A stretch of 64,000 nt of DNA from Candidatus Levyibacteriota bacterium. GTDB taxonomy: Bacteria; Patescibacteriota; Microgenomatia; Levybacterales; UBA12049. Made by a program: the position numbers and the translations under genes. Location of the stretch: assembly GCA_041906785.1 (NCBI GenBank), contig JAYRIM010000023.1, positions 129,985 through 193,984 on the forward strand. Direction: 5' to 3'. Positions 35,267 through 62,421 of the stretch are shown here, piece by piece; position 1 is the stretch's first letter, and the number at the start of each line of letters is the position of its first letter. Below the pieces are notes generated by a model. That model was not told the DNA's origin. It did no database searches and saw only the letters and a list, made by a program, of their open reading frames with translations.

Positions 35267-35286
35267 GGGTAGATTATAACAGACCT

Positions 35287-35796: not shown

Positions 35797-35846
35797 ATCT
35801 TAAGATTAACGCGGATCAGGTATATTTGCAACAAACACGAAACGAA

Positions 35847-37546: not shown

Positions 37547-37548
37547 AA

Positions 37549-38202: not shown

Positions 38203-38222
38203 GAAGCGTATTATACAATAGA

Positions 38223-38474
38223 TTAGCCTGCTTTTCCTGTTTGACCTTGTCCCTCTGTCAAAGCTAGTAAGCTTCCCATCTCTTTTAGAAAACGTTTAGC
38301 ATGATTTCTGCTCATACCTATTCTAGAGACAATTCGAAGCTGATTCGATGGACCTATTTTCTGACAAACATCCAATACTACTCCATCTTCGCTTGTTGTC
38401 ATAAATATATTATCTGTATAGAGAATAGGTGTAGTATCAACATTTATATTCACCTGTACTTCCTTTTTATCCAT
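38223..38474 (-). CDS. hypothetical small protein
   Basis: 83-aa ORF with no confident domain. Confidence 0.4.
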   Translation of the reverse strand: MDKKEVQVNINVDTTPILYTDNIFMTTSEDGVVLDVCQKIGPSNQLRIVSRIGMSRNHAKRFLKEMGSLLALTEGQGQTGKAG

Positions 38475-38494
38475 AGTTCACCTCCTTCGTTTAT

Positions 38495-43705: not shown

Positions 43706-44058
43706 AAAAAAGAAAATACACAATACAAAAAGACGTTACGTTACTATCTTTTTCACTCTTCGTTATCGTTACGTTATGGATTGGATTAACAGTGTATGGC
43801 ATTTATGTAACCAGTACAGTCAGTGATACGTTACAATTGCAAATTTCACCTATCAAAGGCTCATTTGATAAAGAAAGCATCTCTATCATAGAAAACCGCA
43901 TCCCAGTTATTCCTGAATATTCAGCAAGCGATTCAGCTAGTACTGTAACCTTTGATGCGTTACCCACACCGTTTATTTCTAATGAGCAATTATTACCAAC
44001 TCAAACACCAAATACAATATTACAGCCAACTAGCGAATCAGCAGGAGGTCAACTGTGA
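43702..44058 (+). CDS. small membrane protein (PilP-like position)
   Basis: 118 aa with a single TM helix; operonic overlap with neighbours on both sides. Confidence 0.4.
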   Translation: MKKRKYTIQKDVTLLSFSLFVIVTLWIGLTVYGIYVTSTVSDTLQLQISPIKGSFDKESISIIENRIPVIPEYSASDSASTVTFDALPTPFISNEQLLPTQTPNTILQPTSESAGGQL

Positions 44059-45482
44059 AACGAACACTCTTAAATAAAAAAATACCATCTTATATCGGCT
44101 TTCTGGGTCTGTTACTTCTTATCCCTCTCATTTCATGGTTTGTCGAGAATAATTCATTTGTCCGAATTAAAGCAAATCCGAATTATTCACCTCGCGATAT
44201 TCAAATAAGTAATGTTACTGATTCTTCTTTTACCGTATCATTTATAACTACAGAAGCGACGCCAAGCACGATTTCGTACGGAGAGAAAAACGATTTAAAA
44301 GACATAGCTTTCGATATACGAGATACGACCCAGAGCAAACCTGCAGCACATAAGGCTCATTTCTTTACGGTAAATAATCTCCGTACGAATACTGAGTATT
44401 CATTTACTATTTTAGCCGGAAATATGGTATTTAAAAAAGACGGTCAACCCTATACAGTAACTACTGGATCAGTACTAACGACGATACCAAAAGAATCGAA
44501 AAAGATTACTGGGCATGTTATTTTACCTGATGGTACATATCCTACAGAAACTATCGTATATGTAATTTCAAACACATCACAACAATTAGCGAAATTAACT
44601 GAACTAGATGGTTCATTTTCTATTGAGCGATCTCTTTTACGAACAAGTACTTTTGATGGATATGCTGATCTTCCTGAATCTGAAGAACTACAGCTTCGTG
44701 TAGTGAATAGTGACCATGAAACATCAGTAAATGTTCTCGTAAAAAATGCAGGAGTTGTCCCTACGATTACGTTATCAAAAAATTATGATTTTACCTATGA
44801 TACAGCACCCGATGAAGGACATAATACTACTGATACTGCGAATCTTTTTCCTGAATATTCAACAAATAAAATTCTCAGTAAAACTCCCCAGATACTTATT
44901 CCCACAGAAAATCAGGCATTTGATGATCTACAACCAGAATTTAGTGGGACTGCGCTTCCTTCAAAAACTATAGATATAAGTTTTGATACTTCACCTATAA
45001 AATCTACGGTAAGAGCAAACGCAACAGGGAGTTGGTATTACCGTCCGAAACTTCCTATGGAACCTGGAAATCATACAATTATTGTCAGTACTAAAGATGA
45101 TTCAGGCATGTTAGTAACTTCATCACAAACATTTGCAATCCATGCAATAGGTAGCCAGTTTTTTGCACCATCTCCAGCCGTTTCACCAACACTTACCCCA
45201 ACTGTAAAACCATCTATCTCCCCAACCATACAACCGACAGTGACAGTCCAACCAACTGTTCCTACCGGTGGTCCCACCCTATCTCCTGTTCTAACTCCGA
45301 CTATTACACCGAGCCTTCTTCCTAGCCCGACTCCAATAGCTGTAATCACCGTCACGATTCCGCCTACTACTCCATTACCAAGTGTCACACCACCAGGAAG
45401 TGGAACTGTCGCAGTAACTTTCGGATTCGCGTTATTTGCTATTGTTGTTGGCATTATGGTATTTTTTCTTACCCATGTATAA
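44055..45482 (+). CDS. large surface protein with FN3-like/PAP-N, CarboxypepD_reg-like and bacterial Ig-like domains, a Thr/Pro-rich stalk and a C-terminal TM anchor
   Basis: GTG start after an AGGAGG ribosome-binding site. FN3-like segment SNVTDSSFTVSFITTEATPSTISYG...TNTEYSFTI; Ig-like segment PEFSGTALPSKTIDISF...ATGSWYY...GNHTIIV; then a TPTxxPT stalk; the C-terminus GSGTVAVTFGFALFAIVVGIMVFFLTHV. Confidence 0.6.
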   Translation: MKRTLLNKKIPSYIGFLGLLLLIPLISWFVENNSFVRIKANPNYSPRDIQISNVTDSSFTVSFITTEATPSTISYGEKNDLKDIAFDIRDTTQSKPAAHKAHFFTVNNLRTNTEYSFTILAGNMVFKKDGQPYTVTTGSVLTTIPKESKKITGHVILPDGTYPTETIVYVISNTSQQLAKLTELDGSFSIERSLLRTSTFDGYADLPESEELQLRVVNSDHETSVNVLVKNAGVVPTITLSKNYDFTYDTAPDEGHNTTDTANLFPEYSTNKILSKTPQILIPTENQAFDDLQPEFSGTALPSKTIDISFDTSPIKSTVRANATGSWYYRPKLPMEPGNHTIIVSTKDDSGMLVTSSQTFAIHAIGSQFFAPSPAVSPTLTPTVKPSISPTIQPTVTVQPTVPTGGPTLSPVLTPTITPSLLPSPTPIAVITVTIPPTTPLPSVTPPGSGTVAVTFGFALFAIVVGIMVFFLTHV

Positions 45483-45594: not shown

Positions 45595-46893
45595 TTGAAA
45601 CTTACTACAATGAACATAGGTATTATAGGTGCAGGATTCACAGGTCTTTCTGCAGGATATACACTTACAAAACAAGGCCATATAGTTACTATTTTTGAAA
45701 AAGATCCACAACCAGGCGGATTAGCCATAGGGTATAAAGAAAAAGAGTGGGAATGGTCACTTGAAAAACACTATCACCACTGGTTTACGAATGACAAATT
45801 TATTCTTAATTTAGCAAAGGAAATTAATCATACAGTCTATATTAAAAGACCTCATACAAACTGGTATGTAAATGGTAATATTTATGAGTTCGACTCAATA
45901 CCAGCGGCCTTAAGATTTCCTCCTCTGCCTTTTATTGATAGGATAAGAAATTTAGCAACACTTGGATTACTTCGTTTTAATCCTTTCTGGCAACCACTTG
46001 AAAAATATAATGCACACAAAGTACTTCCATTTTTCATGGGGGGAAAAGCATATAAAATGCTGTGGGAACCATTGTTTATAAATAAATTTGGTAGCTATGC
46101 TACTGATGTCTCACTAGCTTGGTTTTGGGCCAGAATTGCTAAGCGAACACAATCTCTTGCTTATCCAGAAGGAGGTTTTTTAGCCTTTGCCAATCATCTC
46201 GTAACAGGTATAGAAAAAAATGGTGGAAGGGTACAGTTCAATACCGAACTAATTGAATTACTTCAAAATAAAAAGACTACAGTAAAAATAAAAAACATAT
46301 CAGGGAATATAGCTACTGTTTCATTTGATAAAGTGATTGTAACCTTGCCTTCTTTTCTGTTTCTTAAAACAACTCCCCAACTTCCTGATGCATATAAGAA
46401 TTCTCTTGCGAAATTAAAAGGTTTGGGTGCGACAAATCTTATCCTTCGATTAAAACAACCTTTTTTTGCAGATAATACATACTGGTTAAGTGTCGCTGAT
46501 ACTACTTCACCGGTAATGGCAATTGTCGAGCATACAAATTTTATGGATAAAACATTTTATAATAATGAACACTTGCTCTATCTCGGCAACTATGTTCCTC
46601 AAGACCACTCGTATTTCTCTATGACTGAGCAACAAATGCTTGATCATTTCGACAAATTCTTAAAAAGAATAAATCCAACCTATAAAAAAACAATTATAGG
46701 TATGAAATTGTTTAAGGCTCCTTTTGCTCAACCTGTTATTCCTGAGAACTATTCAAAAATGCTTCCTCCAATGAAAACACCGTTATCTCAAGTATTCCTT
46801 GCAAATATAGAACAGGTATACCCATGGGATAGAGGAACAAATTATGCCGTAGAACTAGGACAAAAAGTTGCTCATCTTATTACTAAAACCTGA
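45595..46893 (+). CDS. FAD-dependent oxidoreductase (amine oxidase/HemY/CrtI-like Rossmann)
   Basis: N-terminal dinucleotide-binding motif IGIIGAGFTGLSAGYTL...IFEKDPQPGG. Confidence 0.65.
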   Translation: MKLTTMNIGIIGAGFTGLSAGYTLTKQGHIVTIFEKDPQPGGLAIGYKEKEWEWSLEKHYHHWFTNDKFILNLAKEINHTVYIKRPHTNWYVNGNIYEFDSIPAALRFPPLPFIDRIRNLATLGLLRFNPFWQPLEKYNAHKVLPFFMGGKAYKMLWEPLFINKFGSYATDVSLAWFWARIAKRTQSLAYPEGGFLAFANHLVTGIEKNGGRVQFNTELIELLQNKKTTVKIKNISGNIATVSFDKVIVTLPSFLFLKTTPQLPDAYKNSLAKLKGLGATNLILRLKQPFFADNTYWLSVADTTSPVMAIVEHTNFMDKTFYNNEHLLYLGNYVPQDHSYFSMTEQQMLDHFDKFLKRINPTYKKTIIGMKLFKAPFAQPVIPENYSKMLPPMKTPLSQVFLANIEQVYPWDRGTNYAVELGQKVAHLITKT

Positions 46894-48646
46894 CCATTAC
46901 TATTCTCACATGAAAGCGTTTATTCATTATCTTAAAAAAAGTTCTTTTTTTCTGATTCTCGTTTTTACACTTCTTGGAGGCTTTTTTCGTTTTTATAATC
47001 TGAATTGGGGAGCACCATATTATTTTCATCCTGATGAAAGAAATATCATGGGATCAATAACACAATTGAGATTTCCAGATCAAATGAACCCAAACTTTTT
47101 TGCGTACGGATCGGTTCCTATTTATACGATCTATTTTCTCGGGGTATTCGTTAATGTAATTAACACCTGTGTAACCGGTTCTCTCTGCCCTGTCCTACCT
47201 CTTATTGCTGGACATTGGAATGAACCGTCGATTTGGAACAGTATAAATGCTGTATCATTCGAAAATGCAATTATAATTGCGAGAAGTATTTCTGCTCTTT
47301 TTTCAATTTTATTAATACCGTTGCTCTATATAATAGCGAAGAAAATCCACTCAAAAAAAGCTGGTATTTTAGCCGCTTTTTTTACATTTACAAGTATAGG
47401 CTTTATACAATTCGCTCATTTCGCAACCTTTGAAATGTGGTTGACATTTTTTAGCGTTATCTTAACCTGGTACGCAATAAAAGTAAGCGAGGAAAATAAA
47501 ATTCCAGATGTTCTTTTAATGGGGGTTGGCTTAGGAATTCTTATGGGTATAAAAGTATCAAGTCTTGCCATCATTCCTCTTCCTATCATTGCGATACTCT
47601 ATGGTTGTATAAAAGAAATTTCTTACTATCATGAAAAAAGGAATATATTAAAAACTCTTCTTTTATTTATTGTTTCTTCACTATCTGTATTAATGCTAGC
47701 AAGTATTATGTTTCTTATTACAAATCCTTTTTCCTTACTTGATACAAAAGCTTTCAAAGATAGTCTAACCTACGAAACGAATGTTGCAACTGGTTCATTG
47801 CCTGTTTTTTATACACAATCATTTTTTGATAGCACTCCAGTAATTTACCAATTTGAACATATTTACCCATTTCTGCTAAACCCTCTTACAACTATTTTAT
47901 TTTTCCCTTGCTTTACTTTCTTTTTTATAAAGATGAAATTCGAAAAGAAAGTTTCGTATCTTTTAATTCTTTGCATGTTTTTTCTTCTTTTTCTACCACA
48001 AGCTTTTTTATTTGTTAAATGGACCCGCTATATGCTACCAACGCTTCCATTTATATATCTGATCATTAGTACTATTCTCAGTGACATCATAGAACGTGCG
48101 CATAAAACAAGATTTCTTCCATATATACAGTTTACAAGCAGCCTGATTATCAGTGTGTCTCTTCTGTATGCCACAGCATATTTTCTAACTGTTTACTTTC
48201 AGGGAGATACAAGAATAAAAGCTGCTGAGTGGCTTCAACAAAATACAACAGCAAATCAAACTGCGATAAGTGAAACGTTTGATCCTGGTAGTATTGTTTT
48301 TACAAACGTTTTTTCAAAGAAAATTTTTTGTAATTTTTATGATTTAGAACATGAAGCTTTACCGTGTGAAGGACTTTCTGTATCAGAAGCTTTAGAACGA
48401 TCGACCTATATACTTCTCCCAAGTGAACGAATAATGCAGTCCCGTTTACATAATCCCAAACGCTTTACTAAAGGTTACAACTTTTACCATTCACTTTTAT
48501 CTGATAAAGCACACTACTATTTAGTATATAAAACACCATGCGATATTTTTTGTCGGATCACTTATTTTGGCGATCCTCTTTCTTTATATGAACAGACTGC
48601 ATTTGTCTTCGATAGACCTACTATATATATTTTTCAAAAGCTATAA
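46868..48646 (+). CDS. GT-C fold polytopic membrane glycosyltransferase-like protein (PMT_2/ArnT-like), paralog 1
   Basis: 592 aa with many TM helices. The first loop reads FFRFYNLNWGAPYYFHPDERN, the putative D-E catalytic loop, and is shared with the next gene. Confidence 0.55.
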   Translation: MLILLLKPDHYYSHMKAFIHYLKKSSFFLILVFTLLGGFFRFYNLNWGAPYYFHPDERNIMGSITQLRFPDQMNPNFFAYGSVPIYTIYFLGVFVNVINTCVTGSLCPVLPLIAGHWNEPSIWNSINAVSFENAIIIARSISALFSILLIPLLYIIAKKIHSKKAGILAAFFTFTSIGFIQFAHFATFEMWLTFFSVILTWYAIKVSEENKIPDVLLMGVGLGILMGIKVSSLAIIPLPIIAILYGCIKEISYYHEKRNILKTLLLFIVSSLSVLMLASIMFLITNPFSLLDTKAFKDSLTYETNVATGSLPVFYTQSFFDSTPVIYQFEHIYPFLLNPLTTILFFPCFTFFFIKMKFEKKVSYLLILCMFFLLFLPQAFLFVKWTRYMLPTLPFIYLIISTILSDIIERAHKTRFLPYIQFTSSLIISVSLLYATAYFLTVYFQGDTRIKAAEWLQQNTTANQTAISETFDPGSIVFTNVFSKKIFCNFYDLEHEALPCEGLSVSEALERSTYILLPSERIMQSRLHNPKRFTKGYNFYHSLLSDKAHYYLVYKTPCDIFCRITYFGDPLSLYEQTAFVFDRPTIYIFQKL

Positions 48647-48689
48647 ACAGTTGTCCCAACAGAGATGAGCTGATAATCTAGAAGTATCT

Positions 48690-50402
48690 ATGGAAAATAA
48701 ATTTCAAAAGATTTTATTTCAAAAAAGAATTGTTGAAAAAATACTTTTTTTTTCTATTCTTATTCTTGCTTGTTTTCTGCGGTATTTCAATTTGGACTGG
48801 GACCAAGGGCATCATCTCCATCCAGATGAAAGATTTTTAACGATGGTTGTAAATAAAATTCAATTACCTCATTCTCTTATAACATATCTTACAACTGAAA
48901 CCTCACCACTTAATCCTGCAAATAATGGGTATGATTTTTTTGTTTATGGCATGTTACCACTCACAATTGGAAAATTACTTGCGTTCTGGCTACATGCAGA
49001 TACATATAGTTCGTTTACAATACTTGGGCGTTTTTTATCTGCCACTTTTGATCTTTTAGCAATCTTTATGGTGTACAAGACCGTAAAACTATTTGAAGAA
49101 AAAGAACATCTGGCTAAAAGCGTTAAGTTCTATGCAATGTTTTTCTATACGATTGCTGTTCTGCCAATCCAGTTATCTCATTTTTACGCGAGTGATACCT
49201 TTCTAAATACGTTTGTCATAATTTCATTCTATTTCATACTGAAATTCCTTTATACAAGATCCTTTGCCTCACTTTTCCTAAGTGGTATTTTCTATGGTTT
49301 AGCGTTTTCAGCAAAGATAACCGCTTTATACGCTGCACCATTATTAGGATTGGTCATAGTATATGGAATATATATGTATAATATCTCAGTTAAAAATAAA
49401 AGAACGTTACATCTATTTTTTTATGCATTTGCAGTGTTTTCTACATTTGGTTTAACAACTTATTTTACGCTTCGCATGGCAGATCCATATATATTTGCCT
49501 CTAACAGTTTTTTTAATCCATTAATACATCCTAAGTTTTTTGAAAACTTACAATTGCTACAATCTTGGGAAGGATATGATACATGGTTTCCGCCCTCTAT
49601 CCAATGGATTAATAAACCGCCAATTATATTTGCATTGATGAATATTATTTTCTTTGGTCTAGGTCTACCATACTTTTTGTTCGTAATAATTGGTGTTAGA
49701 TCTCTTTTTAAGAAAAAACCTTTCATCTTTCTTATTATTTTGTTTTGGGTAAGCGGATTCTTTTTATATCAATCCACACGATTTACGAAAAATATGAGAT
49801 ATTTTATTATTCTTTATCCGTTTTTTGCTGTTTTTGCTGGAATAGGATTTTCTTGGTTTACACAAAATAAGAGAAATTTATTTCGTACTATTCTACTGTT
49901 TTTTGTCTTGTTATGGCCATTATCATTTTTTTCAATTTATTTACATCCTCATTCTCGAGTTACCGCATCTGAATGGATCTATAACAATCTACCTACGAAC
50001 AGTATAATCCTGAGTGAATACTGGGATGACGCCCTCCCTTTATCAATACCAAATCAAACTAAACAATTTACGATAGAAGAACTTCATGTTTTCGATCAAG
50101 ATACCCCTTCAAAATGGCAGGAACTAGAGAGACAATTGAATAGAGCTGACTATTACATTCTTTCATCTAACAGAGCGTGGGGCAGTATTCAAACTGTCCC
50201 AGATAAATATCCCCGCATGAGCGCGTTTTATAATGATTTGTTTGCGGGCAAAACACAGTACATGAAAATTCAAGATATTATGTCTTATCCATCTCTCCAG
50301 TATCTAGGTATTCCTTTGACATTTCTTGATGATTTTAGCGATGAATCATTTACGGTCTATGACCATCCCCGTATAATAATATTTAAAAATACGAAAAAAT
50401 AA
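48690..50402 (+). CDS. GT-C fold polytopic membrane glycosyltransferase-like protein, paralog 2
   Basis: 570 aa. FLRYFNLDWDQGHHLHPDERF is the same loop motif as in the upstream gene. Confidence 0.55.
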   Translation: MENKFQKILFQKRIVEKILFFSILILACFLRYFNLDWDQGHHLHPDERFLTMVVNKIQLPHSLITYLTTETSPLNPANNGYDFFVYGMLPLTIGKLLAFWLHADTYSSFTILGRFLSATFDLLAIFMVYKTVKLFEEKEHLAKSVKFYAMFFYTIAVLPIQLSHFYASDTFLNTFVIISFYFILKFLYTRSFASLFLSGIFYGLAFSAKITALYAAPLLGLVIVYGIYMYNISVKNKRTLHLFFYAFAVFSTFGLTTYFTLRMADPYIFASNSFFNPLIHPKFFENLQLLQSWEGYDTWFPPSIQWINKPPIIFALMNIIFFGLGLPYFLFVIIGVRSLFKKKPFIFLIILFWVSGFFLYQSTRFTKNMRYFIILYPFFAVFAGIGFSWFTQNKRNLFRTILLFFVLLWPLSFFSIYLHPHSRVTASEWIYNNLPTNSIILSEYWDDALPLSIPNQTKQFTIEELHVFDQDTPSKWQELERQLNRADYYILSSNRAWGSIQTVPDKYPRMSAFYNDLFAGKTQYMKIQDIMSYPSLQYLGIPLTFLDDFSDESFTVYDHPRIIIFKNTKK

Positions 50403-51617
50403 ATGAAAATTTCATATCGGGCATTACTATTAGCTTTTGTTATCTTATTGCATGTTAGTTTTTATATCTCTGCAATTTCTACAAAAACATATGATTATTT
50501 TTTCCCATGGGGTAATGTCCACGAGTGGCAAGGAATTGACTTTTTTTGTGTTCCAAATGGTGCATATGCATATCTTCGAGGAGGTTCGTTAACCGGAGAA
50601 TTAAAAGATCAACCAACATATACCTATGCAAATATTAATGTCTACCATCCTTTTTTTACTATAGTCTTTGGTTCGTTTTTTCAATTATTCCAACCTAAGA
50701 CAGCTATGCTCATTTGGCATGGCATAAAAGGTTTAATTACAATCGTTATATTTTTAGTATTTTATAGAAAGTACAAACACAATAAATATTTCTATCTCTC
50801 ATCATTCATTTATTTTTCCCTATTTCCTCAATATTTAGAAATCTGGAATGGACAATATCAATTTTTGGTAACGCTGGGTTTGTTCTTACTTTTCTTTTCA
50901 TCCAAGAAACATACAGATACATTTTCGAATGGCTTTTATTACTTTTTTACTTTACTCGTGAAACCAATCGGCTTATTATGGATTCCCGCATTTTTAGTCC
51001 ATAAACAATGGAAAATACTTTTAACAGGAATCTTTCTTTATATATGTTTCACTGCGTTATTTCTTATAGATTCTTCCGGATTGTATTTTGTTACTAATCT
51101 CCTTGAACGAATACAACATCCGATCGGAGGTCCGCCTGGTATTTTTACAATAGAATCGCTTCTTCGCTTTTACTTTCCACTATCGCTTGTAAGTGTCTTA
51201 ATGAAATACATGTTTCTGGGTATTTTACTTGGATTTCAGCTGAAGTGGAAGCCATCTCTTCTGCAATCTCTTTTTATCTGGACAGCGTATTATATGTTAT
51301 TTTACGATCTAGTTTTTGAATACCACTACACATCGCTCATTCCTTTTTTTATGTTCGGTTTAGTAACGAAAGAATTATTCCAAAAAAAACGTGACCAAAT
51401 TCTCCTCCTAACCTACTCCTTCCCAACACCATTTTTCCTTTTTCATTATTTCCAAGTATTTGCTCATGGTCATTATGTGACTGATACAGGTTGGACCATA
51501 TTAGTCCTGACACGAACAATTCCACTTTTTCTGCTTGTTGTCTTTTTTATAATAGACACTATTTTTAATAAAAAACAAGTACATGTAGGGGAGGAGAAAA
51601 AGGTTAAGAAAAACTAA
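50403..51617 (+). CDS. polytopic membrane protein (possible DUF2029/GT87-like glycosyltransferase)
   Basis: 404 aa with at least 9 hydrophobic helices; it sits in the glycosylation locus. Confidence 0.4.
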   Translation: MKISYRALLLAFVILLHVSFYISAISTKTYDYFFPWGNVHEWQGIDFFCVPNGAYAYLRGGSLTGELKDQPTYTYANINVYHPFFTIVFGSFFQLFQPKTAMLIWHGIKGLITIVIFLVFYRKYKHNKYFYLSSFIYFSLFPQYLEIWNGQYQFLVTLGLFLLFFSSKKHTDTFSNGFYYFFTLLVKPIGLLWIPAFLVHKQWKILLTGIFLYICFTALFLIDSSGLYFVTNLLERIQHPIGGPPGIFTIESLLRFYFPLSLVSVLMKYMFLGILLGFQLKWKPSLLQSLFIWTAYYMLFYDLVFEYHYTSLIPFFMFGLVTKELFQKKRDQILLLTYSFPTPFFLFHYFQVFAHGHYVTDTGWTILVLTRTIPLFLLVVFFIIDTIFNKKQVHVGEEKKVKKN

Positions 51618-52725
51618 CGAGAATTTTCCTATATTCTTCAATTGTTTTTTCTATTGAAAATATTCTTTGTACTAGCTGCTTTCTTTTCTTATAAATGTCT
51701 GGAAATTTTAAAACTTTATATATCTTATCTGCTAAATCATCACTGTCTTTTGGTCTAACAAGCTCTCCCATTTGAGTCATTCGGACGGTTGTATTAACTC
51801 CTGGTAAATTTGTCGCTATAACCGGACAGCCGCAAATCATTGCTTCTGCTTGTACCATACCAAATGCTTCTGTTTTATTAATAGAAGGCAATACTAATAG
51901 ATCGAGTGTTTCATATAAAGCACGTAGTTCTTCATCTGTTAAAACGCCTAGCATCTTATGCTTTATTTGTCCTTCTTGTAAAAGAGAAACTATCTTTTTT
52001 CTATAATTATCTTCTCCAACTGGTTGAGGACCAGCAAAAATTAACCGTACTGAATTTTTCACTTTTAACTTCTTTATAGCATAGAGAAGGTATTCTATGC
52101 CTTTCTCTTCCGCTATTCTACCCACAAAGCCTATCCATAACTCATCCTTCTTACTTTCGAGTAGTTTTCTTTTTTTTTCTTTATCTATCGAGATAGTAGG
52201 GATAGGAGGATTAACTTCTTTAATTTTTGAAAGGAAATACTTCGCTAATACTGATGTTTTCTTATATTCAGGTAACATAATAATCTGATCACTTAAGAGT
52301 AGCTGAATAAAAGCACTGATTGATACTATTTTCTCAATAAACCTTGCTGCAGGCTTCCTACCAAGTGATACTTCACAAAAAAACATGACTATAATTTTTT
52401 TATTCATAAGTTTTGCAAATAGAACAAGAGGTAACGCTTCCACATTAGGTAAAGTAACAAAGAGTATCTGTGTTTTTTTTAATTCTTGGAAAAAGGCAGG
52501 AATTGTATAGGGAGAAATAAATCCTTTACTCATTTTAAATAAAAACGGCATTCGTTTAACCGTTATATTTTTATATACCTCTTCATTAGATAACTCTTTC
52601 TTATACTGAAAAGTTAAAAGAGTAATCGTATTGTCAGATGCAAGTCTTGAGAATACTCGTTCAATATAGACTGTAATTCCAGAAATATATGGCAGAAAAT
52701 ACGATGAATATACTAAAATCTTCAT
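51604..52725 (-). CDS. GT4 family glycosyltransferase
   Basis: GT4 motif EAFGMVQAEAMICGCPVIATNLPGV. Confidence 0.8.
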   Translation of the reverse strand: MKILVYSSYFLPYISGITVYIERVFSRLASDNTITLLTFQYKKELSNEEVYKNITVKRMPFLFKMSKGFISPYTIPAFFQELKKTQILFVTLPNVEALPLVLFAKLMNKKIIVMFFCEVSLGRKPAARFIEKIVSISAFIQLLLSDQIIMLPEYKKTSVLAKYFLSKIKEVNPPIPTISIDKEKKRKLLESKKDELWIGFVGRIAEEKGIEYLLYAIKKLKVKNSVRLIFAGPQPVGEDNYRKKIVSLLQEGQIKHKMLGVLTDEELRALYETLDLLVLPSINKTEAFGMVQAEAMICGCPVIATNLPGVNTTVRMTQMGELVRPKDSDDLADKIYKVLKFPDIYKKRKQLVQRIFSIEKTIEEYRKILVSFS

Positions 52726-52726
52726 A

Positions 52727-53317
52727 TTGGCACGCTATAGCAATCTCTTTAGAAAGTTTGTTATGATAGTAACAATCATTATGCGCGTTGGGTTTGACCT
52801 AGATAATGTATTTATTAGTAACCCTCCAATTATACCTCATCGTATAGTTGAAAGATTATATAGGAAAAAAACGAACGGAGATTTGGAGTATAGGATGCCT
52901 AAGAGGTTTGAACAATATATTCGAAAAGCATCCCATGCTCCATTACTACGTCCTGCGATAAAAAATAACCTTTCCGTTCTGAGGTCTATTTCAAAAGATA
53001 AACACACTCTCTTTTTGATTTCAAGCCGATTCGGTTTTTTAAAACAAGCAACAAATAAAATTATTAAAAAGCACAAATTGGACCAGATTTTTTCTGAAAT
53101 GTATTTCAATTTCGATAATAAACAACCCCATTTGTTTAAAGAAGAAACAATAAAAAGATTAAGACTCGACACATTTATCGATGATGATTTACCTTTACTT
53201 AAGTTTCTTGCAAGTAGAAACAATGCTATAAAACTTTATTGGCTGAATAGAAAGATAGATAAAAAAATAAGTGCTAATATAACTGCTATTACTAAATTAG
53301 AACGCATTTTTGAGTAA
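52727..53317 (+). CDS. HAD-like hydrolase
   Basis: Motif I GFDLDNV near the N-terminus and DD near the C-terminus (FIDDDLP). Confidence 0.5.
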   Translation: MARYSNLFRKFVMIVTIIMRVGFDLDNVFISNPPIIPHRIVERLYRKKTNGDLEYRMPKRFEQYIRKASHAPLLRPAIKNNLSVLRSISKDKHTLFLISSRFGFLKQATNKIIKKHKLDQIFSEMYFNFDNKQPHLFKEETIKRLRLDTFIDDDLPLLKFLASRNNAIKLYWLNRKIDKKISANITAITKLERIFE

Positions 53318-55928
53318 CTCTATGAACACTTCCGATTTTATTTTTATTGTTCAATGGTGGGTGATACTTTTCGCCGCGGGTCTTGCTGTATTACCTCTAA
53401 CGATGAACATATTTCACTCGTTTCTCGATAAAGGATATGCCTTCTCTAAAATTCTAGGCATTATTTTTATTAGCTATATCGTGTTTATTTTAGGTGTAAT
53501 TAAAATCGTTCCTTTCTCGTCAGTTACTATTTATAGCGTGTCTATTCTATTATTAGCAGTCTCTTACATTACAGTACAAACTCACTGGAAAAAAGTTTTA
53601 ACACGCAGGATGGTATTACTGTTTTTACTCGAAGAATTACTTTTTTTCTTTGGCTTATGTATATGGTCATATATCAGAGGCTTTAACCCTGATATCTTCG
53701 GTTTAGAGAAATATATGGATTTTGGATTCGTAAATTCGATACTCAGATCTACCTATTTCCCGCCTATGGATATGTGGTATCCACCTTATCCAATTAACTA
53801 TTACTATTTTGGCCACTTGATTACTGCAGTGTTAACTAAAGCTTCTTCTATTCCTTCATTTATAACGTATAATCTTATGATAGCCACGCTTTTTGCTCTC
53901 TCGTTTATAGAATCATTTTCGATTGGTATAACATTATTAGCTCGATTAAAAAACCCTGTTTTAAGAGCTAGAAAAATTATTATTGGGGGAGTTCTTATCG
54001 CATCACTAGTGACACTAGGAGGTAATCTTCATGTGTTGTATGCATTTTTCAAACCATATGAAACAGATAAACCAAAACCGTTTTGGGAATTACCTCTTGC
54101 GCTCGATAACCCTTGTTATGGAAAAGATTCATATGAAAAACCAGTCGCTGACGGAACATTTGAAACAATCTACTGCAGCAATGAAGACAAGGTAAAAATC
54201 TCTTCTTTCCCAAATTCCTATTGGTATCCAAATGCCACACGCTTCATTCATAACACGATTCATGAATTTCCGATATATTCCTGGGTTGTAGCTGACCTTC
54301 ACGGACATGTGAGCGATATCCCCATAGTTCTTTTAACTATAGCGTTTATCTTCTCTATTCTCATTTCTTTTTTTGATCATGAATTAGACTTTGTAAAAGA
54401 TACTAAAAGAGAAAAAAGTAATATTTTTTCACCACTATTACGCTTAAAGAATTATATTTTCCTGGGTTTTCTTATAGGAGTAATGTTTATGACAAATGCG
54501 TGGGATGGATTAACGTATCTACTTTTAAGCGGATGTATGCTTCTTTATACACAATGGAAAAGAGTTCAACAGAACATAGACGAGAAAACGACTCATAATC
54601 CACTATTATTTTTTGTCCCAAAACATCATTTAAAATCTTTCCAACATTTTTTTCTAAAGAATCCGCTGAGAGATATATTTTTTGGCGTAGTAACATATCT
54701 TTGCATTATTGTTATTTCATTTTATATTTTTTCAAAACCATTTACGATCTTTTTTAATGCTTCGCAAATAGTTTCGGGTATTGGAGTTCTTAATGCCCCC
54801 TCTTTTTTATTAGAGAAAAAACATATAGATCCTGCACAGACAATGTACGGTTCTGATAAAAGACCATTTTTCTCTCAAATAGTTATTCCTGATCACTGTA
54901 GAACTTTGATGACACCTGAAGAAGAAAAACTCGTGACAACGCAATATGAAACGAGAAAAATTGGACCTTTTCTTTTTGAACCAGATCATTGTTTACGATC
55001 ACCATGGTGGCAACTTTTCGTTCTCTATGGTTTCTTTTATTTCTTCGTAATTGTCTTAACAGTATTTTTATACAGAAGAAAAAAACAAATACCCGATATT
55101 TTCATAGTACTCCTGATTATTACCTCTTCAGTGTTAATTATTACTCCTGAATTTATTTACATGAAGGATATCTACCCTGATCATTATCGTGCGAATACCA
55201 TGTTCAAACTAGTGTTCCAAGCATTTATTATGCTCTCAATAGTTTCTGGATATACTATCATTCGTGTTTTATCAAAAGATTTACTGAGTAAGAAATCACT
55301 CTCTAAAACAGTCGGAGGTATTTTCTTTATTCTTACAACATTGTTTTTACTATTCATGATATTTATGTACCCTTATTTTGCAGTCACGTCATACTATCCT
55401 GGTTTTAAAGATGACATAGATACCTATATATGTCGAATGCTTCCGTTCCTTCCTAAGGATAAGGCATCATGGTGCGCTTCTAGACAACTTAAATATCAAG
55501 GGTTAGATGGATTGCAATACCTAAAAAAAAGAAGTATTCAAGACGAAAATGATGATTATAAAGCGATTCTCTGGCTTAATCATATAAAAGGTCAGCCCGT
55601 AATTTTGGAATCTCAAGGAGATTCTTATACCGAACATGAACGGATATCGGCAAATACAGGTCTCCCTACAGTATTGGGATGGTTCGTACATGAATGGTTA
55701 TGGAGAGGTGAAGATGTGCCAAAACCCCGCTCAGAAGATGTAAAAAAAATCTATGAATCGGAAAATATTGATGAAACTCGAGATTTACTAAAACGATATA
55801 CAGTTGCATATGTAATTATAGGTGATTTAGAACGACAAAAATATCCAAACCTCATACAGGATAAGTTTAATCGTCTGGGAAGAGAAGTCTTTACTCAAGG
55901 TAAAACAAGTATATACGAAATATATTAA
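53310..55928 (+). CDS. Chlor_Arch_YYY-domain (DUF2298) large polytopic membrane protein
   Basis: 872 aa with many TM helices; the signature YPPYPINYYYFGHL (YYY motif) is present. Confidence 0.6.
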   Translation: MSNSMNTSDFIFIVQWWVILFAAGLAVLPLTMNIFHSFLDKGYAFSKILGIIFISYIVFILGVIKIVPFSSVTIYSVSILLLAVSYITVQTHWKKVLTRRMVLLFLLEELLFFFGLCIWSYIRGFNPDIFGLEKYMDFGFVNSILRSTYFPPMDMWYPPYPINYYYFGHLITAVLTKASSIPSFITYNLMIATLFALSFIESFSIGITLLARLKNPVLRARKIIIGGVLIASLVTLGGNLHVLYAFFKPYETDKPKPFWELPLALDNPCYGKDSYEKPVADGTFETIYCSNEDKVKISSFPNSYWYPNATRFIHNTIHEFPIYSWVVADLHGHVSDIPIVLLTIAFIFSILISFFDHELDFVKDTKREKSNIFSPLLRLKNYIFLGFLIGVMFMTNAWDGLTYLLLSGCMLLYTQWKRVQQNIDEKTTHNPLLFFVPKHHLKSFQHFFLKNPLRDIFFGVVTYLCIIVISFYIFSKPFTIFFNASQIVSGIGVLNAPSFLLEKKHIDPAQTMYGSDKRPFFSQIVIPDHCRTLMTPEEEKLVTTQYETRKIGPFLFEPDHCLRSPWWQLFVLYGFFYFFVIVLTVFLYRRKKQIPDIFIVLLIITSSVLIITPEFIYMKDIYPDHYRANTMFKLVFQAFIMLSIVSGYTIIRVLSKDLLSKKSLSKTVGGIFFILTTLFLLFMIFMYPYFAVTSYYPGFKDDIDTYICRMLPFLPKDKASWCASRQLKYQGLDGLQYLKKRSIQDENDDYKAILWLNHIKGQPVILESQGDSYTEHERISANTGLPTVLGWFVHEWLWRGEDVPKPRSEDVKKIYESENIDETRDLLKRYTVAYVIIGDLERQKYPNLIQDKFNRLGREVFTQGKTSIYEIY

Positions 55929-57049
55929 TGTTCAGGTGAAGGCGTAATACTGCATCCAGCTATTCCTTTTTTTACAAGACAAGAAACATATGTGTGTATT
56001 TCAGAATAATCATCACTTCCAGCTCGAGGAACAATAACCCACTGATAACCAAACTCTTCACTTGTTTTCGGATTTACAAGAAGACCAGGTGCTTCTGTAT
56101 CTTCATTACCAACATCTAATACTGTACTTTCTATATCTGCTTCTTTCATTTTTTCTGCCAATTTTACAAAGTCATCGTACTCTTCCTTCTTAATATCTGT
56201 ATCTATACTATCTTGAAGAATATCAACTAAACCAATAACCTTTATTGGATTTAAAACAGTACCTGTCGAAAATATCTTATCTTTAACTGCTCGAATTACT
56301 TTCTCTTGTCGTTGACTTCTTGCGAAATCCGTGCCTTCTGGTCCTAAGGCATGACGCGAGCGCACAAATTTGAGAGCAGTTTCTCCATCCATTTTTGTTA
56401 TTCCCTTTTGAAACGATAGATGTTCATATCGGCAAGGAAATGCTTCGAGTTGCGCCTCAGCTGTTGCCCGTTTTTGAAATTCTTCATCTTTAAATCCGCA
56501 GTCATCTTCTTCTTTCCCCGCAATAGGATATTCATAATCTTCAAATGATCGAGGAACATCTACATCAACACCGCCAACCAGATCGACAGCCTTTATAAAA
56601 CCAGTAAAATCAATTCGGAATCCATAATCTATATGTTGACCTAAAATTTCAGAAACTGTTTTTTTTGCCTCTTGAAGACCCCAACCTTTTTCTTTTGCTT
56701 CTGCATATGCGTAAGTTGTATTTATTTTCGCATGTAAACGAGTCACCCATAAATCTCTAGGCAGAGATACTAATAATGCTTTTTTCTTTTCTGGATCAAT
56801 GCTTGCCAAAATAATTGTGTCAGTAAGTAAAGGACCTTCGTGTTTTCCACCACCGATTCCAAGAAGTAAAATATTAATCCGTTGCTCCTTCGTTTTCTTT
56901 AACTCTATTTTCTTATTAAACGTATATTCATACACAGGCGTAACGAATTGAAAAAGCTGTATTAAGATATATCCTCCAATTATTAAAAAAATGCTAATAA
57001 GAAGAAGATAGACACGTTTCCTAACTTGTTTTTTTCGTTTCGTCGGCAT
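55925..57049 (-). CDS. LCP (LytR-CpsA-Psr) family protein
   Basis: TM anchor, then NILLLGIGGGKHEGPLLTDTIILASIDPEKKKALLVSLPRDLWV. Confidence 0.8.
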   Translation of the reverse strand: MPTKRKKQVRKRVYLLLISIFLIIGGYILIQLFQFVTPVYEYTFNKKIELKKTKEQRINILLLGIGGGKHEGPLLTDTIILASIDPEKKKALLVSLPRDLWVTRLHAKINTTYAYAEAKEKGWGLQEAKKTVSEILGQHIDYGFRIDFTGFIKAVDLVGGVDVDVPRSFEDYEYPIAGKEEDDCGFKDEEFQKRATAEAQLEAFPCRYEHLSFQKGITKMDGETALKFVRSRHALGPEGTDFARSQRQEKVIRAVKDKIFSTGTVLNPIKVIGLVDILQDSIDTDIKKEEYDDFVKLAEKMKEADIESTVLDVGNEDTEAPGLLVNPKTSEEFGYQWVIVPRAGSDDYSEIHTYVSCLVKKGIAGCSITPSPEH

Positions 57050-59726: not shown

Positions 59727-60803
59727 ATGGTACTAAGATCAATCACTGAACAAGACAAAGAAAAGTTTAATAAAGTTGTAACTCATCCTCTTCAATCCTA
59801 TGAGTGGGGAGAGTTTCGAAAAAAAACTGGTGTTAGAGTTACACGAAAGGGAGTATATGAGGACAATACATTAGTTGATGGATTCCAGTTAACAATCCAT
59901 CCTCTGCCCAAAACCGATTGGACAATTGGCTACATCCCAAAAGGCAATATGCCAACCGAAGACGTTCTTCAAGATTTGCGGAAAATTGGCAAGGAACAAA
60001 AATGTATCTTTATTCAATTAGAACCAAATGTCCGAAAACACGAACTGACAACTAACCCGCTTCGACCTGTCGAAGACGAGGCGAGCAACTCACAACTTGA
60101 ACCAAAGGCTCATCAGCCTCTGGCTGAGACAACTTTTCGTCCTTCCGCTCATCCACTTTTTACGAAATATACGTTCCAGCTAAATCTTACGCAATCAGAA
60201 GAACAACTTTTAGAAAACATGCACCCAAAAACACGATATAACATAAAAATTGCAAAACGTCATGGGGTAGAGATTAGTGAAGATAATTCTGATGAGGCAT
60301 TTGAAAGATATTGGGAATTAACAAAAGAAACAACCTCTCGACAAGGATTCTATGCGCACGATAAAAAGTATCACCTTCTTCAGTGGCAAACATTTCCCCA
60401 CACAAAAAGTCCAAACGCCTTAAGCTCTCATTTATTTGTTGCAAAATATCAAGGTAAGATTTTGACAACAATGCTATTCTTTATCTTTCATGACACGCTA
60501 TATTACCCATATGGAGCATCCAGTAACGAGTCGAGAAATGTTATGCATTCCACACTTACGATGTGGGAAGCAATATTATTTGGCAAAAAAATGGGATTAA
60601 AAAAGTTTGATATGTGGGGAGCACTAAACCAAAATCCCTCTTCTAGAGATCCCTGGATTGGTTTTCATACCTTTAAAGAACGCTTTGGACCAGAGCATGT
60701 AGAATTTATAGGAAGTTATGACCTTGTAATCCATACTTTTCTTTATCAAGGATATAAAATCGCAGACAAACTCCGCTGGCTTTTGCTACGGTTAAAAAAG
60801 TAG
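59727..60803 (+). CDS. FemAB family (peptidoglycan interpeptide bridge) aminoacyltransferase-like protein
   Basis: 358 aa; the N-terminus QSYEWGEFRKKTG resembles the FemAB start, and TRYNIKIAKRHGVEI is a GNAT-like fold. Confidence 0.6.
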   Translation: MVLRSITEQDKEKFNKVVTHPLQSYEWGEFRKKTGVRVTRKGVYEDNTLVDGFQLTIHPLPKTDWTIGYIPKGNMPTEDVLQDLRKIGKEQKCIFIQLEPNVRKHELTTNPLRPVEDEASNSQLEPKAHQPLAETTFRPSAHPLFTKYTFQLNLTQSEEQLLENMHPKTRYNIKIAKRHGVEISEDNSDEAFERYWELTKETTSRQGFYAHDKKYHLLQWQTFPHTKSPNALSSHLFVAKYQGKILTTMLFFIFHDTLYYPYGASSNESRNVMHSTLTMWEAILFGKKMGLKKFDMWGALNQNPSSRDPWIGFHTFKERFGPEHVEFIGSYDLVIHTFLYQGYKIADKLRWLLLRLKK

Positions 60804-60804
60804 T

Positions 60805-62421
60805 ATGAGCATATTTTCACAGTATTTAAAAAAGCTTGAATTAGTATCTTCTGTTTATATTTCATTTTTCCTCCTTTGTCTTACATTTGTTATATACAGT
60901 AATACGCTAGTAAATGGTCTTTTCTTTGATGACGAACATTTTATTTATAATAATCAATTGGTAAAAGCATTTAATTTTCCAGGAATCTTTACTCAGAGTA
61001 TTTCGAAAGGAGATGGTTTTTCAACAAATTATTATAGGCCATTATTATTATTATCTTTTACTCTTGAATATAAACTTTTTGGAAATGCCGGCTTTATCTA
61101 CCATTTTATGAGTATTCTTTTCCATGCAAGTGGAGGAATAGTCTTATATCTGCTTTTATTGAAAATCAGCAAAAACAAAATTATAAGTTTAATAACTTCT
61201 TTGCTGTTTCTTATTCATCCACTACAAACCGAAGCTGTAGCGTATGCCTCCGGTAGGGGAGATCCCATGAGCGTTTTCTTCATATTACTGACAATTCTTT
61301 TTTCGTTTCAGGGAAAAAAGCGATTTTTTAGTATGTTTTTTTTAATCTGTGCCTTGTTATCAAAGGAGACAGCAATAATTACTCCTATTCTTATGTTTAT
61401 AAGCCATCTTACAGAAAGAAAAGATCTCTCAATACAAACAGTAAAGGAAGTTTTTAAAAAAGCTCTTCCTTCTATAGGAATCGTTCTTTTTTATATTTTT
61501 CTTAGGTTAACAATCTTCAATTTTGCTGACACTCTTAACTTTCAACAGGAACATAATAGTTATACTGATAATATTTTTGTCCGAATAAATACGTTTTTTT
61601 GGCTTCTCCCATCATATATCGGACTTTTACTTTATCCTAAAGATTTATTTATGGAACGGGATCAGCTAGTATCGTTTCAAACGTCCTTCTCGTTTTCAGC
61701 CTCAATAAGTATATTGCTTATGTTTAGTTTTTTCCTTTTGGCAATAAAGTACTTTAAAAAAAATGCGTTATTTTTTTTCAGTATTAGTTGGTTTTACGCA
61801 AATTTTATTCTCTTTTCAGGAATTCTTATTCCTATAAATGGTTATTTCTATGAACATTATCTCTACGCAGCATCAATTGGTGTTTTTCTTTGTATTGCAC
61901 TTGGTATAAACAAAGTAATTACCTATGAGCAACAAAATGTAATAAGAATTTTTACCTTAACAATCTTTTCCTTTATCCTTGTATTTTTTATATACAGAAC
62001 ATGGATAAGAAATTTTGAGTGGCATGATCCAAAAACATTTTATGAGCAAACACTCCGACATATTAAAAGTCCACGCATATATAATAATTTGGGAATGGCA
62101 TATAGTGAAGAGGGGCAGACTGATAAGGCAATAGCAGCATATCGAAATGCAATTAACTTATCTGATACATATGCTGAAACTCATTATAATTTAGCAAACA
62201 TGTATAAAGAAAAAGGAGAATTCAAAAATGCAGAGAACGAATATAGACGATCATTGCAAATAAATCCATATTTTTACCATTCCTATATTCAATTGTACGC
62301 CATATATAAGCAACAACAAAACAACCAAGGAATTCAGGATATAGAAAAAAGTTTAAAAAAGTTGGGGGAGAAAAACAGTGAGTATAATAAACTTTTAGAT
62401 ATACTGCGTAATAATTATTGA
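60805..62421 (+). CDS. TMTC-like membrane protein: GT-C/PMT_2-like N-terminal domain plus C-terminal TPR repeats
   Basis: 538 aa with about 10 TM helices, then TPR repeats (IYNNLGMAYSEEGQTDKAIAAYRNAINL..., AETHYNLANMYKEKGEFKNAENEYRRSLQINP). Confidence 0.6.
   Translation: MSIFSQYLKKLELVSSVYISFFLLCLTFVIYSNTLVNGLFFDDEHFIYNNQLVKAFNFPGIFTQSISKGDGFSTNYYRPLLLLSFTLEYKLFGNAGFIYHFMSILFHASGGIVLYLLLLKISKNKIISLITSLLFLIHPLQTEAVAYASGRGDPMSVFFILLTILFSFQGKKRFFSMFFLICALLSKETAIITPILMFISHLTERKDLSIQTVKEVFKKALPSIGIVLFYIFLRLTIFNFADTLNFQQEHNSYTDNIFVRINTFFWLLPSYIGLLLYPKDLFMERDQLVSFQTSFSFSASISILLMFSFFLLAIKYFKKNALFFFSISWFYANFILFSGILIPINGYFYEHYLYAASIGVFLCIALGINKVITYEQQNVIRIFTLTIFSFILVFFIYRTWIRNFEWHDPKTFYEQTLRHIKSPRIYNNLGMAYSEEGQTDKAIAAYRNAINLSDTYAETHYNLANMYKEKGEFKNAENEYRRSLQINPYFYHSYIQLYAIYKQQQNNQGIQDIEKSLKKLGEKNSEYNKLLDILRNNY

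Follow-up and report, generated by a model that had tools for sequence, protein, structure and literature searches.

A conserved gene cluster of Microgenomates with a probable role in envelope glycosylation through lipid-linked sugars

In the streptococcal Pgf operon (PgfS-PgfE-PgfM1-PgfM2), a GT2 glycosyltransferase, an epimerase and two GT-C glycosyltransferases are clustered with their Ser/Thr-rich, wall-anchored substrates (PMC12041528). In the pentofuranose systems described by Kelly et al. (2024, PMC11127046), a GT-C enzyme works with PPPRS, an epimerase and a HAD phosphatase; pilin is arabinosylated via a GT-C enzyme and a lipid-linked pentose (PMC11127046). Here we analyzed a stretch of 64,000 nucleotides (the window; positions 129,985 to 193,984 of contig JAYRIM010000023.1, assembly GCA_041906785.1) of a Candidatus Levyibacteriota bacterium, which carries adjoining genes for an FAD oxidoreductase, two PMT-like GT-C paralogues, a GT87 protein, a GT4 glycosyltransferase, a HAD-fold phosphatase, a Chlor_Arch_YYY/DUF2298 protein (hereafter DUF2298) and an LCP (LytR-CpsA-Psr) ligase. 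It is probable that this locus represents a conserved envelope-glycosylation module of Microgenomates (Levybacteria-like Patescibacteria), which works through lipid-linked sugars. As bacteria, Patescibacteria are attached to other cells in life, and very little is known of the chemistry of their surface.

Conservation and layout of the cluster

The main evidence that these genes form one functional module is their conservation through rearrangement, together with gene fusions. The window proteins were compared with 86-92 loci by tblastn and by hidden Markov models (HMMs) built from them, and neighbourhoods were counted in non-redundant loci within 8 kb upstream (n = 56) and 3 kb downstream (n = 68) of DUF2298. 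The synteny sample from GTDB representative genomes consisted of the best 80 of at least 587 DUF2298 loci, and all of these 80 were from Microgenomates. The gene order in Levybacteria is PilN, PilO, a 118-aa protein, an fn3/Big_13 protein, the FAD oxidoreductase, two GT-Cs, a variable segment, HAD, DUF2298, LCP, TIM, UvrD and FemAB. Upstream of DUF2298, GT-C genes were found in 44 loci, the FAD oxidoreductase in 41, HAD in 35, GT4 in 9 and GT87 in 3; downstream, LCP was found in 49, always accompanied by TIM, and FemAB was collinear in 49 loci. The variable segment usually holds an SDR (short-chain dehydrogenase/reductase) epimerase gene, which adjoins the HAD gene (29 loci), and otherwise a methyltransferase, GT4, GT87, a 545-aa protein without assigned family or, in L028, a 232-aa GT2. 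In L065 the segment holds, just in front of HAD, a UbiA gene whose product is most similar to decaprenyl-phosphate phosphoribosyltransferases (DPPRS-like); UbiA was seen in this one of about 80 loci.

In distant Microgenomates (L049, L063, L066, L067, L069 and L075) the LCP-TIM-UvrD flank is lost, while the FAD oxidoreductase, GT-C and HAD genes remain with DUF2298. In L097 and L098 the order is scrambled, yet the clusters retain DUF2298 (33-37% identity), the FAD oxidoreductase (40%), a PMT-family GT-C (43% to paralogue 2), a GT2 and a HAD-GT4 fusion; a DegT aminotransferase and methyltransferases accompany them, and LCP and Pil genes are absent. Moreover, genes for polyprenyl carriers or lipid-linked sugars (UppS, polyprenyl synthase, GT2 and the DPPRS-like UbiA) lie inside the clusters of relatives. 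Synteny among relatives had been proposed as a check of the cluster, and we found it in dozens of them. It is evident that the clustering is more than chance, since it is syntenic in these relatives and survives rearrangement.

The position of LCP was less robust. It adjoins DUF2298 only where TIM, UvrD and FemAB are collinear too, namely in Levybacteria and L096, and is absent from the rearranged clusters L097/L098, L049, L063, L067 and L075. Because of this absence, its link to DUF2298 is possibly plain synteny, and LCP is a possible, unproven member of the pathway. As to the source of the loci, many Levybacteria-like contigs of GTDB representatives (L007, L012, L014, L016 etc.), with the same synteny and 40-54% identity, are titled 'uncultured Gammaproteobacteria bacterium', which appears to be a placeholder or mislabel.

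The genes of the locus in the window are as follows.

44055..45482, forward strand: fn3/Big_13 surface protein (Pfam Big_13 E 1.4e-7, fn3 E 4.7e-6)
45610..46893, forward strand: FAD oxidoreductase, cytoplasmic, NF005560/PRK07233 (Amino_oxidase E 2.6e-24; NCBIfam 385 bits, cutoff 252)
46910..48646, forward strand: GT-C paralogue 1, PMT_2/ArnT-PMT-like, 578 aa (PMT_2 32.5 bits, cutoff 26.1)
48690..50402, forward strand: GT-C paralogue 2, PMT-like, 570 aa (PMT_2 24.2 bits, just below the cutoff of 26.1)
50403..51617, forward strand: GT87 (formerly DUF2029) polytopic GT-C, 404 aa (Pfam GT87 E 1.2e-7, 32.1 bits, cutoff 25)
51604..52725, reverse strand: GT4 glycosyltransferase (GT-B, Leloir), cytoplasmic (Glycos_transf_1 E 5e-35)
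52781..53317, forward strand: orphan HAD-fold phosphatase, about 178 aa (196-aa open reading frame (ORF) from 52727; HAD fold and motifs)
53322..55928, forward strand: Chlor_Arch_YYY/DUF2298 protein, 868 aa (872-aa ORF; TIGR03662, PF10060)
55925..57049, reverse strand: LCP glycopolymer-peptidoglycan ligase (TIGR00350 99.6 bits, cutoff 62.3; PF03816 E 2.8e-33)
59727..60803, forward strand: FemAB-family peptidyltransferase of the peptidoglycan cross-bridge type (Pfam FemAB E 3.9e-37)
60805..62421, forward strand: polytopic membrane protein with C-terminal TPRs (tetratricopeptide repeats), 538 aa (TPR matches)

All ORFs of the original prediction were present, some with slightly shifted starts: gene callers and homologue alignments placed the FAD oxidoreductase at 45610 (not 45595), GT-C paralogue 1 at 46910 (not 46868), the HAD-like protein at 52781 (not 52727) and DUF2298 at 53322 (not 53310). 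Profile searches bore out its assignment of the FAD oxidoreductase, GT87/DUF2029, GT4, DUF2298, LCP and FemAB families. The LCP and DUF2298 genes are convergent and overlap by 4 bp; the LCP protein has a single hydrophobic N-terminal segment after a basic tail, and its domain scores above the HMM cutoff. The TIM and PcrA/UvrD genes also lie downstream of LCP, before FemAB. The longest TIM ORF, which begins with TTG at 57850, runs into the beginning of the divergent PcrA/UvrD ORF (57807-57850); this is probably an artefact of ORF calling, because gene callers place the TIM start later (223 aa). A promoter and terminator scan of the locus performed no better than on shuffled sequence. The window is AT-rich (G+C about 32-39%) and elsewhere contains a ribosomal-protein region, EF-G and type IV pilus genes; the nearest named relatives of its proteins are from Candidatus Levybacteria/Levyibacteriota and other Microgenomates (Patescibacteria).

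Component families and their contexts

The first-loop motif reported for the two PMT-like proteins was present in both, as RFYNLNWGAPYYFHPDER and RYFNLDWDQGHHLHPDER. H40, P41, D42 and E43 were invariant among 15 orthologues of paralogue 1, and HPDE was at least 90% conserved among those of paralogue 2. In both proteins the HPDER motif comes directly after the first transmembrane helix (TM1) and the N-terminus is Lys-rich; the GT-C topology and these N-termini would place the motif loop on the extracytoplasmic side. The two had been called a paralogous GT-C/PMT_2 pair. Only paralogue 1 exceeded the PMT_2 cutoff, but paralogue 2 is homologous to it over the full length (23% identity, E 1e-25), and hhalign of the two families gave a full-length match with a probability of 100% and E 9e-91; judged by these alignments, they are true but old paralogues. 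Moreover, the L097 orthologue of paralogue 2 (43% identity) matches Pfam PMT (PF02366), and the pair is retained in tandem among relatives. Both carry a distinct C-terminal domain of about 150 aa. When solved structures were searched by sequence, the PMT-like protein matched none of them, Pmt and ArnT included. No similarity emerged when the profiles of the PMT-like and DUF2298 families were compared, so that the two are not detectably related by sequence. The GT87 match spans positions 2-205 of the 237 in the profile, and GT87 is an accessory gene, rare among relatives. In 15 related loci, a polytopic membrane protein of about 545 aa without Pfam match takes the place of one PMT-like paralogue or both in the interval from the flavoenzyme to DUF2298 (for example, L036 8361-9995 and L004 6851-8476); it may be another unrecognised GT-C family.

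DUF2298 was assigned with strong scores (PF10060 E 1.6e-91, 308 bits, cutoff 27.8; TIGR03662 471 bits, cutoff 300). The PINYYYFGHL motif, which had been singled out before, is present in the window protein, and NYYY-G-H is invariant among 20 DUF2298 proteins, as are E133, D137 and D154 in the loop before YYY. This acidic/YYY loop comes after the fourth predicted helix and is preceded by basic loops, a positive-inside pattern which suggests that it faces outside. The family profile matched no solved structure by sequence, and we therefore compared folds. The AlphaFold model (pLDDT 71, pTM 0.76; the helices confident, several loops not) was searched against the PDB with Foldseek: the top three hits were full-length AglB-L of A. 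fulgidus (probability 0.97-1.0, E 4e-3 to 8e-3), followed by ArnT, and the resemblance to AglB extends to the C-terminal soluble domain. In this model DUF2298 has the GT-C fold, a multi-helix membrane module like that of solved GT-C enzymes, and its overall architecture appears closest to the archaeal oligosaccharyltransferase AglB. We found neither an STT3 match among the Pfam and NCBIfam HMMs nor a WWDYG motif, and hence the likeness to oligosaccharyltransferases is a lead and not family membership.

The DUF2298 family is large, with 3,208 matches at E <= 1e-10 around the window protein and 1,768 around a member from Lachnospiraceae. The original prediction regarded it as characteristic of Chloroflexi and Archaea, which is outdated: it is abundant in Patescibacteria and Lachnospiraceae, with thousands of relatives there. 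The further claim that it lacks an established function agrees with our literature search for DUF2298, Chlor_Arch_YYY and 'YYY domain', which found no functional work. On a plasmid of Pseudobutyrivibrio, DUF2298 is part of an O-antigen-like polysaccharide cluster that also comprises GT2s, WecB, an aminotransferase and a member of the O-antigen-ligase family; in a Eubacteriales genome (L095) it comes after a small GT2 of 236 aa, and in Blautia-like genomes after a protein of about 670 aa and a muramidase-type amidase. These independent contexts in Firmicutes agree with a role in surface glycans. In the Blautia/Lachnospiraceae loci L093 (5553-9813) and L094 (7014-11247), DUF2298 overlaps the end of the unannotated ~670-aa protein and is preceded by an Amidase_3 gene and sporulation sigma-factor genes (Peptidase_U4, sigma-70), a context unlike that in Patescibacteria. 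A DUF2298 match on a Halarchaeum plasmid was a fragment only.

The 196-aa ORF before DUF2298 had been called HAD-like, and it has the Rossmannoid HAD fold with intact motifs I-IV (DxD, S/T, K and DD). It had no match in the Pfam and NCBIfam profile searches, nor among solved structures by single sequence or by profile. It is a true HAD-fold phosphatase of an orphan family, which is small, with 251 representatives among 1.84 billion proteins. At least 10 of them (548-601 aa) have the HAD domain fused in front of a GT4, and the window GT4 aligns over its full length with the GT4 half of one such fusion, P0378 (35% identity, E 3e-64), whose gene stands back-to-back with DUF2298. Because they are fused in relatives, the HAD protein and GT4 are considered to work together. 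In the window the two genes are divergent and about 55 bp apart, and the stop of the HAD ORF overlaps the DUF2298 ORF; HAD adjoins DUF2298 in 35 of the 56 loci. A two-step logic of a glycosyltransferase and a HAD phosphatase is known in the sucrose-phosphate, trehalose-phosphate and mycothiol pathways. As for pentofuranose systems, the HAD protein was also considered as a candidate for their phosphoribose phosphatase (PRP). Orthology was rejected, as its family showed no profile similarity to the PRP domains of proteobacterial UbiA fusions (probability 0.06%), and a PRP role is kept as a functional possibility only, because of the UbiA gene before HAD in L065.

The FAD oxidoreductase has a fold of the amine-oxidase/phytoene-desaturase type, and its family, NF005560, carries only the name 'hypothetical protein'. 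On plasmids of Agrobacterium, Burkholderia and Rhodobacteraceae, NF005560 is part of a conserved cassette composed, in order, of a DPPRS-like HAD-UbiA fusion, a DprE1-like oxidase, an SDR (DprE2), an NAD epimerase, NF005560 and GtrA (L089 3446-9628, L090 3500-9739, L092 4511-10678), flanked by large glycosyltransferases or by 530-580-aa proteins without assigned family; the Agrobacterium homologue scores 510 bits against NF005560. This cassette resembles a pathway for lipid-linked pentofuranose to which two tailoring enzymes have been added. In Embleya, an actinomycete with the closest homologue in the plasmid collection (30% identity), the gene comes after a DegT aminotransferase and a GT2. 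In Daviesbacteria-like loci (L049, L063 and L067), the flavoenzyme gene is divergent from that of undecaprenyl-diphosphate synthase (UppS), and a polyprenyl synthase lies two genes past DUF2298. These gene contexts lead us to infer that the substrate of the flavoenzyme is either a polyprenyl-phosphate sugar or the carrier lipid. UDP-galactopyranose mutase, protoporphyrinogen oxidase and carotenoid desaturase were rejected as its identity, the PDB and NCBIfam support being limited to the shared FAD-binding N-terminus.

The gene immediately upstream of the cluster encodes the fn3/Big_13 protein, whose C-terminal part carries a Pro/Thr/Ser-rich stalk (about aa 375-450) and a hydrophobic anchor; no other ORF of the window is PT-rich. 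About 45 orthologues share the stalk (50-82% P/T/S over 60 aa) and the hydrophobic tail. The gene keeps its place after PilN, PilO and the 118-aa protein, and lies upstream of the cluster in 35 of the 56 loci; the stalk protein and Pil genes are missing from most rearranged or non-Levybacteria clusters (L063, L066, L069, L071-L075 and L096-L098). This protein is a candidate acceptor for glycosylation. The stalk measures 60-100 aa, and in many orthologues it is succeeded by a motif like P-x-T/A-G-(N/S)-S and by the hydrophobic tail, an arrangement that resembles a sorting signal; in the window protein the motif reads TPPGSG, and a basic C-terminal tail is lacking.

The 538-aa protein at the downstream end had been described as TMTC-like, a GT-C with TPRs. 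The TPRs were found; for the membrane part, matches stayed below threshold (TMTC_DUF1736 E 0.017, 15.5 bits, cutoff 27; NF046093, 'cell surface glycopolymer formation protein', 35.7 bits, cutoff 150), and it showed no match in the PDB and no similarity to the other GT-Cs of the locus. It was found in 3 of about 80 loci (homologues in only two other loci). It is possibly a GT-C, and it is not a conserved part of the locus.

Other genes of the window were noted in passing. Upstream of EF-G, wall-related genes for an LD-carboxypeptidase (S66), a GH18 chitinase-like protein and a GDSL lipase/acylhydrolase lie at 34292-39514 (reverse strand), and a canonical HAD_2 phosphatase at 32563-33222. Near the end of the window, a SET-domain protein (62415-63026, reverse strand; E 3.9e-11) adjoins a DOT1-like methyltransferase (63047-63574, reverse strand; E 1.1e-7); SET and DOT1 domains typify histone methyltransferases of eukaryotes. 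In 33 related loci the DOT1-like gene is collinear; the SET gene was found in none of these. Beyond the DOT1-like gene, relatives have Sod_Ni (nickel superoxide dismutase) and an adjoining S26-type peptidase (L002 18240-19115, L004 20461-21167, L005 20816-21552), a pair not seen in the last kilobases of the window.

A probable pathway and its alternatives

The arrangement best supported for a pathway through lipid-linked sugars comprises a cytoplasmic and an extracytoplasmic half. In the cytoplasm, GT4 and its HAD partner would make a glycosylated intermediate, by transfer of a sugar to a phosphorylated or lipid-bound acceptor and subsequent dephosphorylation, and the NF005560 flavoenzyme would alter a polyprenyl-phosphate-linked sugar or the carrier lipid; in relatives, an epimerase, methyltransferase, GT2 or UbiA may be added to this cytoplasmic half. 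Outside, the four GT-Cs (the PMT-like pair, GT87 and DUF2298) would move sugars from lipid carriers to an envelope acceptor. The PMT-like paralogues may act as a pair, and DUF2298 may perform the last transfer, or one en bloc. It may use a lipid-phosphate-linked sugar donor; its neighbours in relatives include genes for GT2, UppS and polyprenyl synthase. The acceptor might be a wall glycopolymer or lipoglycan, which LCP could attach to peptidoglycan, or Ser/Thr residues of a surface protein such as the Pro/Thr-rich stalk protein. We lean slightly toward a surface glycoconjugate built in several steps over decoration with a single sugar.

Support for such a module comes from the acidic loop motifs (HPDE(R) after TM1; E133, D137, D154 and YYY in DUF2298), the HAD catalytic motifs, the HAD-GT4 fusions beside DUF2298, and the relatives of NF005560 beside UbiA/DprE1/DprE2/GtrA or DegT/GT2 in three other lineages. 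On the other hand, several findings speak against it. The synteny is widely shared with housekeeping genes (TIM, UvrD and EF-G), so that adjacency inside Levybacteria is weak evidence alone. The DUF2298 model is of moderate confidence, its conserved C-terminal WxxHEWLWRG stretch has a pLDDT below 50, and none of the Foldseek E-values reached 1e-3. The product of GT4 and the HAD phosphatase could just as well be a soluble glycoside that has nothing to do with the GT-Cs. Profile searches of 45.5-62.5 kb of the window found no polyprenyl-phosphate sugar synthase (GT2 or UbiA), which does occur in the relatives L028, L065, L095 and L097, and no flippase (GtrA, MATE or Wzx) was found among the locus ORFs in Pfam and NCBIfam; these functions would be encoded elsewhere, or GT4 acts directly on a lipid. 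Finally, the literature search returned no member of the DUF2298, NF005560 or HAD families with known activity. The original prediction of protein or wall glycosylation by lipid-linked GT-Cs nevertheless stands in its core, by virtue of the GT-C fold, the rearranged clusters and the carrier genes of relatives, while it gave too much weight to LCP and included a TPR protein that is not conserved.

Two narrower readings of the acceptor were weighed, each of them possible and rather doubtful in our view. The PMT-like pair and an oligosaccharyltransferase-like DUF2298 might O-glycosylate Ser/Thr in the stalk of the adjoining wall- or membrane-anchored protein, or pilins of the nearby type IV pilus genes, in analogy to the streptococcal Pgf operon, actinobacterial Pmt and Pseudomonas TfpW. 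The membership of the paralogues in the PMT/PMT_2 families, the position of the cluster after PilN and PilO with the sole PT-rich protein of the window directly upstream, its stalk conserved in about 45 orthologues, and the AglB-like DUF2298 including its C-terminal domain are consistent with it, as are the precedents of Pgf with its own Ser/Thr-rich adhesin substrates (PMC12041528) and of pilin arabinosylation by a GT-C with lipid-linked pentose (PMC11127046). However, the PT-rich protein and Pil genes are gone from most rearranged or non-Levybacteria clusters, the features of STT3, WWDYG and the PMT MIR domain were not found by sequence, and the neighbours of DUF2298 in Firmicutes are polysaccharide or cell-wall genes rather than adhesins. 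The O-antigen-like cluster of Pseudobutyrivibrio fits a wall polysaccharide or lipoglycan of the mycobacterial type, an explanation that we would also call unlikely though worth keeping. Here GT4 would prime a lipid anchor or linkage unit in the cytoplasm, GT87, the PMT-like proteins and DUF2298 would extend it outside from polyprenyl-phosphate sugars, possibly pentofuranoses from a UbiA/HAD/oxidoreductase/epimerase route, and LCP would ligate the product to peptidoglycan. The combination of GT4, GT87 and several GT-Cs parallels the PimA/PimE/Mpt/Emb logic of synthesis of phosphatidylinositol mannosides, lipomannan, lipoarabinomannan and arabinan (textbook knowledge; cf. PMC6031116); LCP, convergent with DUF2298 with the 4 bp overlap, is adjacent in 49 of 68 loci and also in L096; and the sugar route is favoured by the DPPRS-like UbiA directly before HAD in L065, the SDR epimerase adjoining HAD in 29 loci, the NF005560 genes in DprE1/DprE2/UbiA/GtrA cassettes, and the joint action of a GT-C with PPPRS, an epimerase and a HAD phosphatase in the systems of Kelly et al. 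(2024, PMC11127046). Yet LCP is invariably accompanied by TIM and UvrD and has disappeared from rearranged clusters, UbiA occurs in one of about 80 loci, the HAD family shares no profile similarity with UbiA-fused phosphoribose-phosphatase domains (0.06%), and GT87 is scarce (3 of 56 relatives).

That the genes have independent envelope functions and are chance neighbours in a small, highly collinear genome seems very improbable to us. Such an explanation would account for the collinearity of unrelated housekeeping genes (EF-G, TIM, UvrD/PcrA and DOT1-like) across Levybacteria, for the variable middle of the cluster (GT87, GT4, methyltransferase, epimerase or 545-aa protein) and for the uninformative promoter/terminator scan. 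It is at odds with the HAD-GT4 gene fusions, with the overlapping HAD and DUF2298 frames in the window and their adjacency in 35 of 56 loci, and with the re-clustering of the same four component families in L097/L098 in another order and with other flanks.

For the envelope-glycosylation module itself, a bolder extension is that DUF2298 is an unrecognised AglB/STT3-like oligosaccharyltransferase family of Patescibacteria, Firmicutes, Chloroflexi and Archaea, which, with the GT4-HAD unit and donor tailoring by NF005560, would constitute a new bacterial en-bloc glycosylation system for surface proteins or the wall; we mention it as a speculation with small odds. In ultrasmall symbionts, such a system might act on the Pro/Thr-rich stalk protein near the type IV pilus genes. 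What is new in the locus are leads, namely a widespread AglB-like GT-C family, an orphan HAD family coupled to GT4 and a flavoenzyme family tied to polyprenyl-sugar metabolism, and not a demonstrated new mechanism. The testable roles of GT4-HAD unit, lipid-sugar oxidoreductase and AglB-like transferase would annotate thousands of 'hypothetical' genes and give access to the glycans that in uncultured bacteria mediate attachment to hosts, recognition by phages or the architecture of the wall. If the locus is an ordinary cluster for a wall polysaccharide, the gain will be better annotation only.

Comparison with known systems

The division of labour proposed here, with activation of sugars on polyprenyl phosphate inside and GT-C transfer outside, is that of the multi-component systems of Gram-positive bacteria (GtrB/CsbB with GtcA and YfhO; Pgf). 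As in our cluster and its relatives, the Pgf operon combines an epimerase with two GT-Cs, and its acceptors are Ser/Thr-rich wall proteins, compared with the PT-rich stalk protein considered here. In contrast to those systems, the GT-Cs of the present locus are PMT_2/PMT-like, GT87 and DUF2298 and not YfhO, the window locus has no GT2 or GtrA/GtcA, and it has GT4, the orphan HAD phosphatase and the NF005560 flavoenzyme, all of which are lacking in those systems.

The three-component pentofuranose pathway and the mycobacterial decaprenyl-phospho-arabinose pathway share with our locus a phosphatase, a flavin oxidoreductase, an SDR epimerase (in relatives) and several GT-Cs. The likeness extends to the DPPRS-like UbiA before HAD in L065 and to the NF005560 members within UbiA-DprE1-DprE2-GtrA cassettes. 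However, the window lacks UbiA, the flavoenzyme has the amine-oxidase fold and not the VAO fold of DprE1, and the HAD family, unrelated to the PRP domain at the profile level, is fused to GT4 instead. Archaeal N-glycosylation (AglB/STT3 with Agl GT2/GT4 enzymes, a methyltransferase and the Dol-P-sugar GT-C AglS) differs in that DUF2298 has neither the STT3 HMM match nor WWDYG, and its conserved loop comes after the fourth predicted helix, not the first.

Finally, the PMT-like pair can be compared with Pmt (GT39; yeast Pmt1-Pmt2 and actinobacterial Pmt) and ArnT (GT83). The locus paralogues are set apart by marginal scores (24-32 bits), the absence of a MIR domain, their own C-terminal domain of about 150 aa and the absence of a match to solved Pmt or ArnT, whereas they have in common with these enzymes the PMT_2/PMT HMM matches, the D-E motif in the first loop after TM1 and the tandem pair. 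Pro/Thr-rich acceptor regions, like that of the stalk protein beside our locus, are typical of actinobacterial Pmt substrates.

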